From Escherichia phage 186: 30,624 nt of DNA. The position numbers and the translations under genes are program-made. Every line of letters begins with the position of its first letter. Position 1 is the first letter of the stretch. Of the stretch, positions 1,962-30,624 are shown piece after piece. The notes under the pieces are model-generated. The model was not told where the DNA came from. It did not search any database and was given only the letters and a program-made list of their open reading frames with translations. The stretch is from sequence record NC_001317.1; one strand, 5' to 3'.

Positions 1962-3730
1962 TAATTAAACTCCAGAATGGATTTAGGCTGTATGCCGCTA
2001 CCGGCGGAAAGCGGTTCGTTTAACAGGGCGTGCATGGTCGCCCATGCAATATCGGCGTGACTGGCTTCCTCGGTGCGGCTGGCCTCGTAGGTGGCGCTGC
2101 GCCCGCTGCTGGTCATGGTTTTGCGGATGGACATAAACGACTGCGTGACGTCGGTTGCTCCGGCGTCGTACTCCAGACAGCCGCGGCGAATGGTGTCTTT
2201 TGCCTTGAGTACCATTGCGGTTTTCATTTCAGGCGTGTAACGGATGCCGCGTGCGGCCGGGTAGAATGAGCGCACCAACTGGAACACGCCGAGGCCGAGG
2301 CCGGTTGCGTCAATGCCGATGTATTCGACGCTGTATTTCTCGGTCAGTTTGCGGATGCCATCTGCCTGCGCGGCAAAGTCCATGCCCTTCCACTGGTGGC
2401 GCTCCAGCATGCGGAACTTGCCACCAGAAACCACCGGCGGCGCGAGCACGACGCACCCGGCGCTGTCGCCAGTGTGTGACGGGTCGTAGCCAATCCAGAC
2501 GGGGCGAGAGCCGAACGGATGGTCGGCGAACGGGGCGAAGTCCTCCCATTCTTCCATCACGTCGACCATGCAGCGCTGCAGCTCCTCGAACGGGAATACC
2601 GACGCTTTATCGTCGACAAACTCGCACATAAACAGGTTTTTAAAGTCCTCATCACTGTTTTCGCGTTTGAGTTGGTCGAGGTCGAACAGGGTGCAGCCAC
2701 CGGCAAGGGCGTCCTCAATGGTGACAATCTGCCGCCACTGGCCATCGTCGCAGAGCTGGCCACCGGCGAGCGCGCGGTGACTGATGTCAATTTCGATGCG
2801 GTCGGCAATACGGCTGCGCCCCTTGTTGAACAGCTCGCCAGACCAGAAGGGATAAGCGCCGTGCGCCAGCGTTGAGGGTGTCGAAAAGTAGGTTGAGCGC
2901 AGATGCTTCTGCGAGGCCATGCCCGAGGCGACTTTGCGCAGCTTCTGAAAATTCGGGATCCAGAATATTTCATCGACATACAGGTCGCCGTTATGGCTCT
3001 GAGCCGTGTTGGAGTTGGTACCGAGAAAAATCAGCTTTGCGCCGTTGTTGCCAATGACAATCGGGTCGCCGGTCAGGTCGACGTCAACCAGTCGCGCAAA
3101 CTGTATGATGTATTCGCGGAACACGTAAGCCTGCGTTTTACTGGCCGACAGAAAAATCTGGTTATGGCCGGTCTTGAGTGCTCGCAGCAGTGCCTCACGG
3201 GAAAAATAGAACGTCGCGCCAATCTGGCGGGATTTGAGAATGTCGCGAATACGGTGTGCCAGTCCTGCGCGGTACCACTGCAACTGGTACTCGAAAGACT
3301 GGTCGAAAAATAATTCCTCCAGCTTTTCGATAGCCTCGTCGCTGAAAAAATTCTTTTTCGGCTTCTTGCGCTCACCCTTGTTGCGGTTGGCGACGTTGGG
3401 GTTAAGGTCGGCCTCGTTGCCGGTCTGGCTGTAGCGGTTAACGCGTGCCAGTCGTTCAATCTGCCGCCCGAGCAGGTCAATCTCTTTGAAGTCACCGCCT
3501 GACTTTTGCGGCTTGGCGATGAGCTGAATCAGGCGCGCCTCAAGGCTGCTTTCAACGCGGGAAATCGGTGCGATGCCATCCCAGCCGTCGCGCTGTTTCC
3601 AGCTCTGCACGGTCGGGCGCTTGACCTGCAGCATTTCGGCAATCTGCGGCACGGAAAAACCCTGCCAGTAAAGCAGCGATGCCTGTCGTCGCGGGTCATG
3701 CAACAAGGTTGTATCGGTGGAAATGGTCAT
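1961..3730 (-). CDS. Terminase large subunit, ATPase plus nuclease (P2 gpP homolog)
   Basis: 589-aa ORF MTISTDTTLLHDPRRQASLLYWQGFSVPQIAEMLQV... with an N-terminal HTH-like region, a deviant Walker A (KSRQIGAT), Walker B (LYVDEIFW) and a C-terminal nuclease-like region (VWIGYDPSHTGDSAG). SD GAGG upstream. Confidence 0.93.
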   Translation of the reverse strand: MTISTDTTLLHDPRRQASLLYWQGFSVPQIAEMLQVKRPTVQSWKQRDGWDGIAPISRVESSLEARLIQLIAKPQKSGGDFKEIDLLGRQIERLARVNRYSQTGNEADLNPNVANRNKGERKKPKKNFFSDEAIEKLEELFFDQSFEYQLQWYRAGLAHRIRDILKSRQIGATFYFSREALLRALKTGHNQIFLSASKTQAYVFREYIIQFARLVDVDLTGDPIVIGNNGAKLIFLGTNSNTAQSHNGDLYVDEIFWIPNFQKLRKVASGMASQKHLRSTYFSTPSTLAHGAYPFWSGELFNKGRSRIADRIEIDISHRALAGGQLCDDGQWRQIVTIEDALAGGCTLFDLDQLKRENSDEDFKNLFMCEFVDDKASVFPFEELQRCMVDVMEEWEDFAPFADHPFGSRPVWIGYDPSHTGDSAGCVVLAPPVVSGGKFRMLERHQWKGMDFAAQADGIRKLTEKYSVEYIGIDATGLGLGVFQLVRSFYPAARGIRYTPEMKTAMVLKAKDTIRRGCLEYDAGATDVTQSFMSIRKTMTSSGRSATYEASRTEEASHADIAWATMHALLNEPLSAGSGIQPKSILEFN

Positions 3731-21156: not shown

Positions 21157-21408
21157 TTACTCAGAACCATCGCCGACATAGGTTCCATCAGGTGCGAGAT
21201 GATATCTTCCACCAACATAAGTCCCATCTGGGGCAAGTGTTGGGCGGCCAGCAACATAACTTCCATTTGGCGCTAAGCGTGGAACGCCACCGACATAAGT
21301 TCCATCGGGTGCAAGGCGTGGTGCTCCTCCTCCAACATAAGTCCCATTAGGGGCAAGCATAGGTTGTCCGTAAACATAGGTACCATCAGGTGCTAATCGA
21401 ACTGACAT
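21157..21408 (-). CDS. Small tandem-repeat protein (six roughly 13-aa LAPDGTYVGG-type repeats), function unknown
   Basis: 83-aa ORF with a strong SD (GGAGG, 4-nt spacer) 14 nt downstream of the integrase stop. Protein is MSVR followed by repeats LAPDGTYVYGQPM / LAPNGTYVGGGAPR / LAPDGTYVGGVPR / LAPNGSYVAGRPT / LAPDGTYVGGRYH / LAPDGTYVGDGSE. Confidence 0.6.
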   Translation of the reverse strand: MSVRLAPDGTYVYGQPMLAPNGTYVGGGAPRLAPDGTYVGGVPRLAPNGSYVAGRPTLAPDGTYVGGRYHLAPDGTYVGDGSE

Positions 21409-21422
21409 ACAACCTCCATAAC

Positions 21423-22433
21423 TTATTTGCTGTTAGTAATGTGAACTAAAGGATTTAGTTTAACTGCATCCTCTAAATGGTCGGGTGCAAAGTGCGCATA
21501 TCGCATGGTCATTTTTATATCTGTATGGCCGAGTACGCGCTGCAACACCAAAATATTACCGCCATTCATCATAAAGTGACTAGCGAAGGTGTGACGTAAA
21601 ACGTGGGTAAGTTGTCCTGCCGGTAGTTCGATACCTGTTCTTTCCAAAGCTGACCGGAACGCGCCATAACAATCACTGAACAACCGGCCCTTTTTATCAT
21701 CAGGCAGAGACTCATAGAGCTCTTTGCTGATTGGGACGGTGCGATTTTTTCTACCTTTCGTGTTGGTGTATGTGATTTTGTATTTCGCGAGTTGGCTTTT
21801 TCTCAGACTCTCGGCCTCAGACCACCGTGCGCCAGTTGCGAGACAGATTCTTACCACGGTTTCTAAATCAGGGTGGTCATGTCGGTTACACTCTCCGAGC
21901 AGTTGCGAAATTTGGTCGTGAGTTAGCCAAGTCATTTCCATTTCTTCTGTGCGGAATGGGCGCATATTTTTTAGTGGGTTTTCACCCTTCCATTCTCCGA
22001 GGCGGTTTAGCTCATTGAACACCGCCCGGAAGTAGGCCAGCTCAAGATTAAGCGTGCGAGGCGATACCTCTTTCACTCTGTTTGAACGGGCATACTCACC
22101 TTTTAACCGTTTTTCTCGGTAGCGGGAAAACATCTGCGCATCGAAATCGCGTGCGAGTGGTTCGCCCATACACTCAAAAGCATGGTGCATGGCTAACTGG
22201 CGTTTCAAACCATCTTTCAGTGTAATGCCATGAGCGCTATACCATGAATCAACCAGCTCTTTTAACGTGCGCCTGTCTTCCTTTTCTTCCTGCCACGGGT
22301 TTTGAACGGTGTACTGCTCAAACGCCAGAGCCTCGCCTTTAGTAGCGAATTTCTTTCTGATACGTTTGCCTTTTGCACCGTTTGGGTAGAGTTCACAAAT
22401 CCAACCGCCAGCCGGATTTTTACGGACGGTCAT
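21423..22433 (-). CDS. int: Tyrosine integrase
   Basis: 336 aa with tyrosine-recombinase motifs: LATGARWSEAESL (Arg), HVLRHTFASHF (His-x-x-Arg), LGHTDIKMTMRYAHF (His and catalytic Tyr). Adjacent to attP; its start overlaps the repressor stop. Confidence 0.95.
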   Translation of the reverse strand: MTVRKNPAGGWICELYPNGAKGKRIRKKFATKGEALAFEQYTVQNPWQEEKEDRRTLKELVDSWYSAHGITLKDGLKRQLAMHHAFECMGEPLARDFDAQMFSRYREKRLKGEYARSNRVKEVSPRTLNLELAYFRAVFNELNRLGEWKGENPLKNMRPFRTEEMEMTWLTHDQISQLLGECNRHDHPDLETVVRICLATGARWSEAESLRKSQLAKYKITYTNTKGRKNRTVPISKELYESLPDDKKGRLFSDCYGAFRSALERTGIELPAGQLTHVLRHTFASHFMMNGGNILVLQRVLGHTDIKMTMRYAHFAPDHLEDAVKLNPLVHITNSK

Positions 22434-23011
22434 TAGTTAACCTCGCTGTATACACCCACCACACGCCCCAACGTTTTAATATCATCAATGCCGCATTCGA
22501 AAGGAACCTTCCCGCCTGCAACATGTAGTTTTCTACCCGGTAGTTTTGTTAACTCTCGAATGCTTATTGCTCCCTCAATGTCGACTAGCCATAAGCCGTC
22601 AGACAATGATGCTTGCTTGTCCACAAAATAAATTTTCCCCTCGGAACGGATAGCCATCCCATCTGTGAGCGGTTTTGTGAAAAATTGGGCATCAACACTC
22701 AATTGTTTATCGGATTTGAGGATTTCTTCACTTAATGTGAATCCCTCAATCCTTTTTGCGTCGCTCGATTCTCTGTTATTTACAAATGCTTCTCCTTCTC
22801 CGGTAAGTAACCACTGGAGATTAGCACCTGTTTCAAGGGCACAGTGAGCCGCAAAGTCATAGGAGATAGCGCCTCGGGTGTACCTGTTTGACAATGAGCT
22901 GGACGCGATATCGAAGTGGTTAGCTAATTGAATTTTCTGCGAAAATCCGTACGCCTCGCAGATGCGGTCAAGTACATCCACGTTGCTCCATCCTAAAGAA
23001 TCTATTCTCAT
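22433..23011 (-). CDS. cI: Lysogeny (immunity) repressor, 186 CI-type
   Basis: 192-aa ORF MRIDSLGWSNVDVLDRICEAYGFSQKIQLANHFDIASSSLSNRYTRGAISYDFAAHCALETGANLQWLLTGEG...: N-terminal HTH domain plus C-terminal domain. Divergent from the early operon and co-transcribed with int. Size and sequence match my recollection of phage 186 CI (P2 C is only about 99 aa). Confidence 0.88.
   Translation of the reverse strand: MRIDSLGWSNVDVLDRICEAYGFSQKIQLANHFDIASSSLSNRYTRGAISYDFAAHCALETGANLQWLLTGEGEAFVNNRESSDAKRIEGFTLSEEILKSDKQLSVDAQFFTKPLTDGMAIRSEGKIYFVDKQASLSDGLWLVDIEGAISIRELTKLPGRKLHVAGGKVPFECGIDDIKTLGRVVGVYSEVN
22725..22741. promoter_or_regulatory. Inverted repeat CTTCAC-N5-GTGAAT inside the repressor gene (putative flanking operator, left)
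   Basis: CTTCACTTAATGTGAAT, about 370 bp left of the switch region; same dyad as at the late-activator promoter and at 23404..23420. Confidence 0.45.
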
Positions 23012-25474: not shown

Positions 25475-25746
25475 GTATCCGTATCGAAATAGGTGATAAA
25501 TGGGTAATCACCAGCGACCAATATCAATTCATCCTGAATGAAAAAAAAGTCGTTAAGACCGGCAATAAAGCTGGCGAGGAATGGCTCGACACCATCGGTT
25601 ATTACCCGAAGATTAATCAGCTCATTTCTGGTCTGGTACATCACCACATTCATACGGCAATGATTATTTCCCTTAGTGCAATGGCAGAGGAAATAGAGAA
25701 GTTATCTTTTATCTGTGAAGAAGCATTTAAGGCGGTTAAAAAATGA
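25471..25746 (+). CDS. Hypothetical early protein
   Basis: The ATG at 25471 overlapping the exonuclease stop gives 91 aa (MSIRIEIGDKWVITSDQYQFILNEKK...); no recognisable motif. Confidence 0.55.
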   Translation: MSIRIEIGDKWVITSDQYQFILNEKKVVKTGNKAGEEWLDTIGYYPKINQLISGLVHHHIHTAMIISLSAMAEEIEKLSFICEEAFKAVKK

Positions 25747-26747
25747 TTGATTCCCGCTGCTTTGCTGAAAGCACAATAAATATTGTTTCTGTTTCTGGTG
25801 GAAAGGACAGCCTTGCTCAATGGATTCTTGCGGTAGAGAACGACGTACCGCGCACCACTGTTTTTGCAGATACCGGGCATGAGCATTCCCAAACAATGGA
25901 GTATCTGGATTATCTTGAATCCAGACTCGGCCCGGTTATTCGAGTGAAAGCCGATTTTACTCGGCGGATTGAAGGCAAACGGAAATTCATTGCTGAAAAA
26001 TGGCCTGTCTCTCTCGTTGAAGAATGCGGAATGTCTCATGAGCAGGCTGCAGAACGAATCGCAAAGGCACTGGAAATCCTTAAGCCAACCGGTAATCCGT
26101 TTCTCGATTTGTGCATGTGGAAAGGACGGTTCCCGAGCACGAAAGCAAGGTTTTGTTCACTGGAACTGAAACATGACTCAGTACGGGACAAGATTGTACT
26201 CCCAGCGCTGGAGAAATATGACGAAGTAATTCTATGGCAGGGTGTTCGTGCTCAGGAGTCACCAGCCCGCGCTGCGTTACCTATGTGGGAGGAGGATGCA
26301 GATAATACCCCCGGTTTGCATGTGTATCGCCCAATTCTTAACTGGACACATGAAGACGTATTTGCCTTAGCTAAACGACACGGAATTAAACCGAACCCAC
26401 TCTATCAGCAAGGTTGTAGCAGAGTTGGCTGCATGCCATGTATTCATGCAAGAAAATCTGAGCTGGCAGAGATTTTTGCTCGCTGGCCGGAGGAGATTGC
26501 GCGCGTTGCAGAGTGGGAACGTCTTGTTGCTGCCTGTTCACGTCGGGGAAACTCAACATTTTTCCCTTCGACTCACGACCCGCGGCGAGCAGAAAAACGT
26601 ATTGAAGTTGTTACCGTAGAAGAATATGGGATAGCTTCATATCGTGACTGGGCGATGACTACGCGTGGCGGTTCTCAGTACGATTTGCTCGCTGCTACAA
26701 ACGACAAAACTGTGTGCAGTAGCGTTTATGCCGGTGTATGTGAATGA
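25743..26747 (+). CDS. PAPS reductase-like / PP-loop ATP-pyrophosphatase family protein (DndC-like fold)
   Basis: 334 aa with the N-terminal PP-loop SVSGGKDS and a C-terminal Cys cluster (GCSRVGCMPC); translationally coupled upstream and with gene A downstream. Confidence 0.8.
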   Translation: MIDSRCFAESTINIVSVSGGKDSLAQWILAVENDVPRTTVFADTGHEHSQTMEYLDYLESRLGPVIRVKADFTRRIEGKRKFIAEKWPVSLVEECGMSHEQAAERIAKALEILKPTGNPFLDLCMWKGRFPSTKARFCSLELKHDSVRDKIVLPALEKYDEVILWQGVRAQESPARAALPMWEEDADNTPGLHVYRPILNWTHEDVFALAKRHGIKPNPLYQQGCSRVGCMPCIHARKSELAEIFARWPEEIARVAEWERLVAACSRRGNSTFFPSTHDPRRAEKRIEVVTVEEYGIASYRDWAMTTRGGSQYDLLAATNDKTVCSSVYAGVCE

Positions 26748-28828: not shown

Positions 28829-29043
28829 AAGTTGTTTTAACGGTCGATGGGTGCGCGGAACGTCAAAAGGTGAAATCTTTGCTGCAGCTCCTTCACATCA
28901 GGCGAGACGCGGAAAATCCTTAATCGTGTTGCAGATTTAGCTGAGCTGGCAACGAAAATGTAACCGCTAATATTCATCCATATCATGTACATACAGTGTA
29001 TTTAACTGTGATTTTTTTCTTCACACCTTTTGCCAATACGTGC

Positions 29044-29063
29044 TACTGTATGTTTATACAGTA
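29044..29063. promoter_or_regulatory. LexA box (SOS operator) overlapping the promoter of the antirepressor gene
   Basis: TACTGTATGTTTATACAGTA fits the CTGT-N8-ACAG LexA consensus (17 of 20 against TACTGTATATATATACAGTA). A possible -35 TTGCCA (29031..29036) and -10 TATACA (29055..29060) overlap it. Confidence 0.8.
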
Positions 29064-29081
29064 TCTCGTAGTGGAGGTTGT

Positions 29082-29522
29082 GTGGATAGAGAGCTAAATG
29101 AGCACGTTATGATTGAGCGGGTCGAAATGATTGCGCGTCTGACTGCTGAAGGTACTTGTCAGGAAAGAGACCGTGAAATCGCATTGAATCTAATTGCGGA
29201 AATAGCAAGAGGCAACCTAATGAAAAATAATAATTTTTCTGTTGTTTTTTCCGCACCGCCTGTTGGTGAAACATTTGCAAAGGAGGGCAAAGTGAAAGTA
29301 AATATCACGTTGGATAAAGACCAAAAAATCGGCCAGCCGGTAATTGATGCTTTTCAGTGCGAATTGACCAAGCGAATACAGTCCGTTTTCCCGTCAACGC
29401 GCGTTACTGTTAAAAAGGGATCCATGACCGGTGTCGAGCTGATGGGGTTCGATAAAGATTCAGACCGCGAAGCGCTGGATAGCATCCTTCAGGAAGTGTG
29501 GGAAGATGAGAGCTGGCGTTAA
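29082..29522 (+). CDS. tum: SOS-inducible antirepressor with DinI-like C-terminal domain (186 Tum-type)
   Basis: GTG start at 29082 with SD GGAGG 5 nt upstream gives 146 aa. The C-terminal region ELTKRIQSVFPSTRVTVKKGSMTGVELMGFDKDSDREALDSILQEVWEDESW resembles DinI. Sits directly downstream of the LexA box; start-codon choice is inferred. Confidence 0.8.
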   Translation: MDRELNEHVMIERVEMIARLTAEGTCQERDREIALNLIAEIARGNLMKNNNFSVVFSAPPVGETFAKEGKVKVNITLDKDQKIGQPVIDAFQCELTKRIQSVFPSTRVTVKKGSMTGVELMGFDKDSDREALDSILQEVWEDESWR

Positions 29523-29547
29523 TCCCTGAAAAATGTGCAACCATCGA

Positions 29548-29578
29548 CCCCATGTTTGATAGCATGGGGTTGTTTTGT
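29548..29578 (+). terminator. Rho-independent terminator after the antirepressor gene
   Basis: CCCCATG-TTTGATAG-CATGGGG hairpin followed by TTGTTTTGT. Confidence 0.6.
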
Positions 29579-29603
29579 ATGGGATTACACACAAAGGAAA
29601 ATC

Positions 29604-30335
29604 ATGGATACCGTAATAGCATTTTTATCTCTGGCTCTCTTTATTGCTTTTATCGTCGGGTTAATCAAGCCGTCGCTGGTTCGAATGCCGAGCCGTAAGC
29701 GCTCCAGTGCTGTTTATCTCGGTGGCTGTCTGGCGCTGGGCGTTATTGGCTCAATCTTATGGCCGACTGAAAAAACTCAGCCGGTGGCAAAAACTGACGT
29801 ACCGGCGGTTAAAGCGGAACCGGCTACGCCAACGTTTGAGTACGCAGATAAAACCCTCAAAGAATATCGCAACGAGCCAAAAGAAACCCGGCACGAAATC
29901 GTTAAAGACTATGTTGGATTCAAAGGTGTGCAGGCCAGCGCTACCGATGTTTTTTATGCCTGTATGAGCGAGTACACTTTTACCAAAGATGATGCGTTAA
30001 AGCTCAGTGATGTGTTGGGGTGGTGTTTCAACGACTTCGAGAAAGATCCACAATCTCTGAATAATAAAATCAACCTTGACGAATTTCAGGGTAATTTTAG
30101 CGGTTGGGATGGCTCTTATCGCCCGTTAGAGAAGCTGATAAAAGCCAGTATGAATGATGATTCCTCTTATAAACATGTTTCAACGGTCTACCATCTGATT
30201 TTGAATAAAGACCCGCATGCCGTTGTAAAAACAACGTTTCGCGGCACTAATGCTTATGGTGGCGTGGTCAAACAGACCGTAGCAGCACGCGTCAACGTGC
30301 GAACGGGCGAGGTCGATTCAATACTCGACAATTAA
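29604..30335 (+). CDS. Membrane-anchored protein of unknown function (N-terminal TM helix plus about 200-aa soluble domain)
   Basis: ORF-track start 29535 would read through the terminator; the ATG at 29604 with SD AAGGAAA gives 243 aa. One hydrophobic helix (VIAFLSLALFIAFIVGLI), a second hydrophobic stretch (VYLGGCLALGVIGSILW), then a hydrophilic domain. Confidence 0.65.
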   Translation: MDTVIAFLSLALFIAFIVGLIKPSLVRMPSRKRSSAVYLGGCLALGVIGSILWPTEKTQPVAKTDVPAVKAEPATPTFEYADKTLKEYRNEPKETRHEIVKDYVGFKGVQASATDVFYACMSEYTFTKDDALKLSDVLGWCFNDFEKDPQSLNNKINLDEFQGNFSGWDGSYRPLEKLIKASMNDDSSYKHVSTVYHLILNKDPHAVVKTTFRGTNAYGGVVKQTVAARVNVRTGEVDSILDN

Positions 30336-30436
30336 ACATGACAAACGCCGCCGGTGCTGAAACTCGCTTTCAGTGCTGGCGGGGTTGAACAACGAGCCCC
30401 GCGAGGCGTTAGCCTACCCCTGAGCAACCGCCCAAG

Positions 30437-30464
30437 ACCGGTACTATTAAAGCCGGTTTTTTTA
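30437..30464 (+). terminator. Weak hairpin plus T7 run downstream of the last gene
   Basis: ACCGG-N11-CCGGT followed by TTTTTTT; the stem is only 5 bp. Confidence 0.3.
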
Positions 30465-30624
30465 TGCCACTTTTCCACGAATTTCCCGTTTTTTTAGCCG
30501 TGCATGCAACAGGTGCATTGTTTTGCATGCGTCAGGCTTGCCCGTTCTGGTTGTGCGTCGCCAGAGCTGGCGCGGCTCCAGAGTGGTCATGCAACTGCAT
30601 TAAAACCGACCCATAAAGTGGGCA

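Follow-up and report, generated by a model that had tools for sequence, protein, structure and literature searches.

Temperate phages with a self-cleaving repressor of the lambda CI/LexA type resemble coliphage 186 in coupling prophage induction to the SOS response. The two differ in where the SOS signal is read: by the phage repressor itself in the lambda type, and by host LexA at a phage promoter in 186. The 186 SOS operon (promoter p95, tum and orf97; U32222.1) goes back to Lamont 1989, Brumby 1996 and Shearwin 1998, as cited in passages of PMC7708051 and PMC5322425, and has stood since 1989-1998 as the textbook case of a prophage induced through an antirepressor under LexA control. In these passages p95 is described as LexA-regulated and Tum as the anti-CI factor (PMC7708051), and the operon is given as tum plus orf97, citing Brumby 1996 (PMC5322425). 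A passage elsewhere, citing Shearwin 1998, states that Tum binds its repressor and blocks operator binding (PMC3121763). The element still serves as a tool for engineered UV induction. In a 2020 paper, "186 p95.tum, U32222.1 pos. 28984-29538" was employed for this purpose; placed beside a minimal switch, it gave UV-dependent derepression of pR, with repression returning once LexA re-repressed tum (PMC7708051). In DuoHS, a related P2-like phage, deletion of tum and a lexA(Ind-) allele each abolish induction by mitomycin C (PMC12055606).

Two groups of prophages offer further comparisons. PSP3 (tumA/tumB) and Fels-2 have the locus at the same position after gene A, with the same LexA box, an aligned start codon and, like 186, an antirepressor half ahead of a DinI-like one. 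A stop codon divides their coding region in two, and the upstream gene of PSP3 has antirepressor activity (PMC3121763), whereas in the 186-type Tum the two halves are joined by some 30 additional nucleotides. The tumA sequence of PSP3 and Fels-2 has diverged too far from 186 to be detected at the DNA level. Gifsy-1/2/3 (GfoA, GftA, GfhA) and N15 (AntC) likewise place a LexA box ahead of a small antirepressor that binds an uncleaved repressor, and carry a dinI homologue in the same operon as the antirepressor (PMC3121763). These differ from 186 in being lambdoid or linear plasmid prophages, in having dinI first, and in having unfused antirepressors of about half the size; the likeness to 186 considered here is one of regulatory logic. 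E. coli DinI, for its part, is a protein of 81 aa that stands alone and binds to RecA filaments, whereas the module that resembles it by sequence in Tum is fused to an antirepressor domain. The dinI gene is also SOS-regulated.

We analysed a stretch of 30,624 bp, referred to throughout as the window. An earlier note, made from the letters alone, had pointed to an SOS-inducible antirepressor cassette near its right end and likened it to the induction mechanism described for coliphage 186. The resemblance was borne out, as Tum, Orf97, CI and the A protein (AAC34186.1, P41064) are exact-sequence matches to Escherichia phage 186. We found no difference between this locus and the 186 SOS operon as cited in the passages above. 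The p95-tum cassette is thus real and was correctly read, but it was already known in full, because this is the type example itself. The published fragment 28984-29538 fits the window, beginning 46 bp 5' of the -35 hexamer and ending 16 bp past the tum stop codon. In contrast, the earlier boundary of the feature, at 29578, cuts the published operon ahead of orf97. The locus is useful as a control, since the right mechanism and the right phage were recovered from raw sequence alone. The features are collected in Table 1; a search of Rfam returned no family anywhere in the window.

Table 1. Features of the p95-tum-orf97 region and the cI gene (positions are those of the window).
Feature	Position	Strand	Description and basis
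p95 -35 hexamer	29030..29035	+	TTGCCA; 5/6 to TTGACA
LexA (SOS) box	29044..29063	+	TACTGTATGTTTATACAGTA; 18/20 to consensus TACTG(TA)5CAGTA, 2 central mismatches
p95 candidate -10 region	29053..29060	+	TTTATA (17-nt spacer) or TATACA (19-nt spacer); hexamers scored by hand
Shine-Dalgarno of tum	29073..29077	+	GGAGG, 4 nt 5' of GTG; from sequence
tum	29082..29522 (stop included)	+	146-aa antirepressor, GTG start; identical in sequence to Tum of Escherichia phage 186 (AAC34187.1, TUM_BP186, "SOS operon TUM protein")
TumA-like N-terminal module (aa 1-70)	29082..29291	+	PHROG matches phrog_1993 and phrog_37919
In-frame start ATG	29109	+	137 aa; "truncated Tum95.2" in the 186 record
In-frame start ATG	29220	+	100 aa; "truncated Tum95.4" in the 186 record
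In-frame start GTG	29292	+	76 aa; identical in sequence to AAC34190.1, "Isoform ORF95.5 of SOS operon TUM protein"
DinI-like module (aa 71-146, isoform ORF95.5)	29292..29522	+	Pfam DinI, 1GHH; aligns with PSP3 tumB
Hairpin with T-rich tail, tum-orf97 spacer	29545..29582 (hairpin 29545..29572)	+	12-bp stem; tail TTTTGTATGG
orf97	29604..30335	+	243 aa; gene 2 of the SOS operon as published; identical in sequence to phage 186 Orf97 (AAC34191.1)
Distal terminator-like hairpin	30434..30463	+	CCGG...CCGG followed by T7; RNA fold, sequence
cI	22433..23011	-	192-aa immunity repressor, target of Tum; exact match to RPC1_BP186 (AAC34176.1)

The LexA box lies exactly where the earlier note had placed it. 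A consensus scan allowing up to three mismatches returned it as the sole match in the window, and none of 100 dinucleotide-preserving shuffles gave a match. Its CTGT-N8-ACAG core is perfect and likewise occurs once. The box has the marks of a gammaproteobacterial SOS box: a 16-bp palindromic core, a position spanning the candidate -10, and conservation in orthologous loci. Both half-sites are invariant in nine of nine aligned phages. We also compared 35 tum loci drawn from one-genome-per-species contigs, among whose genera are Citrobacter, Pantoea, Kluyvera, Enterobacter, Serratia, Raoultella, Erwinia and Edwardsiella; a near-consensus LexA box stands at a fixed distance 5' of the tum start in 34 of them.

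The promoter itself is less regular. The note had described a promoter-like -35/-10 overlapping the box, and this held in part: the -35 is good (relatives carry TTGCCA, TTATCA or TTGTCG), and both candidate -10 hexamers fall within the box, but the -10 is weak and p95 was not called by a consensus promoter scan. We infer the exact -10 element from hexamer scoring, so either candidate in Table 1 is a provisional assignment. The feature start given earlier, 29031, is close to the promoter edge but falls one base inside the -35 hexamer. At 28994..29019, just 5' of the -35, a weakly palindromic sequence (ACAGT...ACTGT) leads into a T7 run that all nine aligned phages share unchanged. The early lytic transcript may terminate at this element once past gene A. 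Terminator-like palindromes are found 5' of LexA boxes in Gifsy prophages as well (PMC3121763).

Taken with the literature, from which we adopt LexA control of p95 and the binding of CI by Tum, these features suggest the following course of events. In a lysogen, host LexA bound to the single SOS box, over the p95 -10 region, would keep p95 shut. After DNA damage, active RecA would bring about self-cleavage of LexA and p95 would fire, its transcript being translated from the GTG into the 146-aa Tum. Tum would then bind CI and keep it from binding its operators, so that pR is derepressed and the prophage induced, with CI itself remaining uncleaved; the effect would be reversible when LexA returns. 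The hairpin and T tract after tum would most likely end some transcripts, and the remainder would continue through orf97 as far as the T7 terminator near 30463. We hold this account as a whole, in which p95 is LexA-repressed, Tum inactivates an uncleaved CI and the hairpin is a partial terminator before orf97, with high confidence. The claim that induction runs through a LexA-controlled antirepressor rather than through repressor cleavage is supported both by the papers on Tum and by the lack of a Peptidase_S24 domain in CI (see below).

One part of this account concerns the end of the transcript. The hairpin begins 22 bases past the tum stop codon and has six G-C pairs in its stem and a 4-nt loop. 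The 81-nt spacer between tum and orf97 (29523..29603) folds at -27 kcal/mol (z = -2.8), and the segment 29540-29585 at -21.7 kcal/mol. As in intrinsic terminators, a G+C-rich hairpin stands directly before a U tract. A terminator scan of the region gave three sites against 2.2 expected, a count that is not significant alone; support for the hairpin comes from its conservation in relatives, not from the number of sites. It is shared by 9 of 25 fused-tum loci (the window counted in), and the C-to-T changes seen among relatives preserve pairing through G-U. It also remains with tum where the downstream gene has been replaced (locus L010) or where there is no orf97 match (locus L018). In the other loci, the 3' flank diverges directly past the tum stop.

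The hairpin therefore looks like a competent terminator, and as such it fits awkwardly with co-transcription of orf97. The note had gone further and seen a clean rho-independent terminator closing a self-contained cassette. Of the terminator, the stem and the T-rich tail are there, but the element is probably leaky. We infer a partial terminator, with the p95 unit running on into orf97, because the published operon takes in orf97 and a consensus scan found no promoter-like site on the + strand from 29522 to 29604. The word self-contained is justified functionally, since the working fragment 28984-29538 induces alone, without the hairpin and without orf97; it does not describe the transcription unit, as the published operon extends to orf97, beyond 29578. 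A closed unit, in which practically no p95 transcript passes the hairpin and orf97 has some other source of expression than p95, would agree with several of these observations: the canonical features of the terminator, its persistence beside tum when the downstream gene is swapped or the orf97 match is absent, the presence in other P2-like prophages of orf97 homologues that have neither tum nor a LexA box (see below), and the sufficiency of the p95.tum fragment for UV induction (PMC7708051). We nevertheless consider it unlikely, in view of the joint listing of tum and orf97 as the 186 SOS operon in the passage that cites Brumby 1996 (PMC5322425) and of the lack of a promoter-like site in the spacer. 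Our preferred reading remains a partial terminator, with membership of orf97 in the operon taken from the literature. The CCGG...CCGG-T7 element downstream of orf97 is probably where the unit ends, ahead of cos. The stretch 30336..30480 is strongly structured (-50.8 kcal/mol). PSP3 lacks orf97; the DNA 3' of its tumB matches the window from about 30345 on, and the homologous stretch, directly 3' of tumB in PSP3 and between orf97 and cos in the window, spans 30345..30466 and has this hairpin with its T7 run at its end.

We next consider the product of tum. The C-terminus had been called DinI-like, and two comparisons agree: Pfam DinI (PF06183) matches Tum aa 87-145 at 63.9 bits (cut-off 24.2), and residues 2-73 of E. 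coli DinI (PDB 1GHH) align with Tum aa 72-142. Membership in the DinI family is restricted to this C-terminal half, which also carries the PHROG label "RecA filament binding protein DinI", as an annotation only. The first 70 residues gave no match in a Pfam search, nor did Tum in PADLOC; the two PHROG families that they match are families of stand-alone proteins of about 60 aa. Both the fused form (146 aa) and the split form (a TumA of about 60-72 aa) are present among the 35 loci. Tum would accordingly be a fusion of two modules, an N-terminal antirepressor module of about 60-70 aa and a C-terminal DinI-like module. The resemblance of the second half of the 146-aa Tum to DinI has been taken before to suggest a gene fusion (PMC3121763). 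In annotated collections, the closest phage matches besides 186 are 88-95% identical (best 94.8%); they come from Eganvirus relatives from Salmonella, Erwinia, Yersinia and Klebsiella, in which tum is labelled "SOS operon TUM protein" or "DinI family protein".

The DinI-like half raises the question of whether the functional product is an antirepressor at all, or a DinI-type modulator of RecA, such as the 76-aa ORF95.5, that damps or prolongs the SOS response. The C-terminal 76 aa of Tum align across the length of DinI, the GTG at 29292 is preceded at 5 nt by AAGGAGG and aligns with the ATG of PSP3 tumB, and the ORF95.5 isoform is present as an annotation in the 186 record, where the truncated Tum products are entered as AAC34188-90. 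Against this, published work names Tum as the antirepressor and, for PSP3, places the activity in the upstream half (PMC3121763). The internal start is moreover not conserved, because the GTG is replaced by GTT, GTA or ACC in 9 of 24 distinct junction sequences of fused homologues, and the Shine-Dalgarno sequence before it is missing in several. We regard a RecA modulator in place of an antirepressor as distinctly improbable; such a role could be an added function of Tum, not its main one. In view of its existing annotation as ORF95.5 and its lack of conservation across the family, we rejected GTG 29292 as a candidate for a previously unnoticed internal start.

The antirepressor frame itself stands as the note had drawn it, with a Shine-Dalgarno sequence and a GTG start; it has 146 codons and ends at 29522. 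A GTG with a Shine-Dalgarno sequence of the GGAGG type (minor variants GGGGG and GGAGGG) is present in 32 of the 35 tum loci. Over the first 10 codons of tum, from the GTG through the first ATG, the differences among loci fall 61:21:8 on codon positions 3:1:2; this third-position bias indicates that the nine codons between GTG 29082 and ATG 29109 are coding. The GTG also aligns with the one start codon (an ATG) of PSP3 tumA. Translation from ATG 29109 instead, to give a 137-aa protein, has some precedent in annotation, in that Erwinia phage EtG is annotated with an ATG start and a 414-nt CDS and the 137-aa product is entered in the 186 record as "truncated Tum95.2". With a GGAGG placed 4 nt 5' of the GTG and kept with it in most loci, coding bias upstream of the ATG, the PSP3 alignment and a published Tum length of 146 aa (PMC3121763), we think this start very unlikely and retain the GTG.

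The repressor was examined as the target of Tum. CI matches PDB 2FJR ("Repressor protein CI") in all but one of 189 aligned residues, and its Pfam domains are Phage_CI_repr and Phage_CI_C, the latter matching the C-terminal domain at aa 93-185. No Peptidase_S24 match was obtained in Pfam even at E <= 1, and BLASTP comparisons of CI with lambda CI (E = 0.32) and LexA (E = 26) were not significant. The note had argued from the length of CI and from having identified no Ala-Gly or Cys-Gly autocleavage site in it. The length of 192 aa is right, but the protein is not long when set beside other repressors: LexA has 202 aa and lambda CI 237 aa. The statement on cleavage sites is literally wrong, as CI has one Ala-Gly (165-166) and one Cys-Gly (173-174). 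Both lie inside the C-terminal domain, and the inter-domain hinge contains neither dipeptide. The better case against self-cleavage is thus the lack of a hinge dipeptide together with the lack of an S24 domain, which are also the points on which 186 CI differs from the lambda CI/LexA type. Inactivation of CI by RecA-stimulated, lambda-like self-cleavage at one of these dipeptides, with tum as an accessory, can draw on their occurrence in CI, but we give it almost no credence, given their position deep in the C-terminal domain, the Pfam and BLASTP results, a published induction route that runs through Tum (PMC7708051, PMC3121763) and the loss of induction in DuoHS after deletion of tum (PMC12055606). 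Tum acting on an uncleaved CI remains our reading. In the non-significant BLASTP alignments, CI aa 104-190 is collinear with the S24 domains of lambda CI and LexA, and "DGMAIRS" of CI stands opposite the active-site stretch "SGMSMKD" of LexA. Judged from these alignments, the C-terminal domain of CI may have a degenerate fold of the S24 type in which the catalytic serine is missing.

Downstream of the hairpin lies orf97, whose product has two hydrophobic segments at its N-terminus and gave no match in Pfam or PADLOC; one homologue carries the annotation "expression from plasmid blocks 186 infection". Homologues of orf97 (about 76% nucleotide identity) are found in P2-like E. coli prophages that lack tum, for example at 2533..3264 of locus L044, with no LexA box upstream. 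On this distribution, orf97 is mobile cargo that is not itself tied to SOS control and in 186 happens to sit 3' of p95.

The tum locus is situated between gene A and cos. This interval is the gpA-gpQ region, which in P2-like phages has been shown to be a hotspot for cargo directed against other phages (PMC9122126). The position after tum has the appearance of a slot with swappable cargo (29523..29604 in the window; 1941..2830 in L010; also L006 and L018). In a Pantoea prophage, the hairpin and the orf97 leader are kept and an unrelated 268-aa gene begins where orf97 would. The match with Klebsiella phage Kp4882-2 breaks off at the tum stop codon, and that with PSP3 at the 3' edge of the LexA box. 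A swappable slot after tum fits the gpA-gpQ defence hotspot. One could go further and take the hairpin as the leaky edge of the slot, any occupant of which would become DNA-damage-inducible through p95 read-through, with the DinI-like half separately feeding back on RecA and so timing induction. This combined proposal is speculative and we would not expect it to be correct; if the cargo-slot reading were true, exclusion or defence cargo (orf97 in 186, unrelated genes elsewhere) would be SOS-inducible.

Two further ORFs of the window deserve mention. Next to the integrase gene, on the - strand (21157..21408), is an 83-aa ORF made up nearly throughout of about seven LAPDGTYVGG-like repeats. A 334-aa ORF on the + strand (25743..26747) contains a PAPS-reductase domain (PF01507, E = 1e-43); it lies directly 5' of replication gene A, and its stop codon overlaps the start of A.
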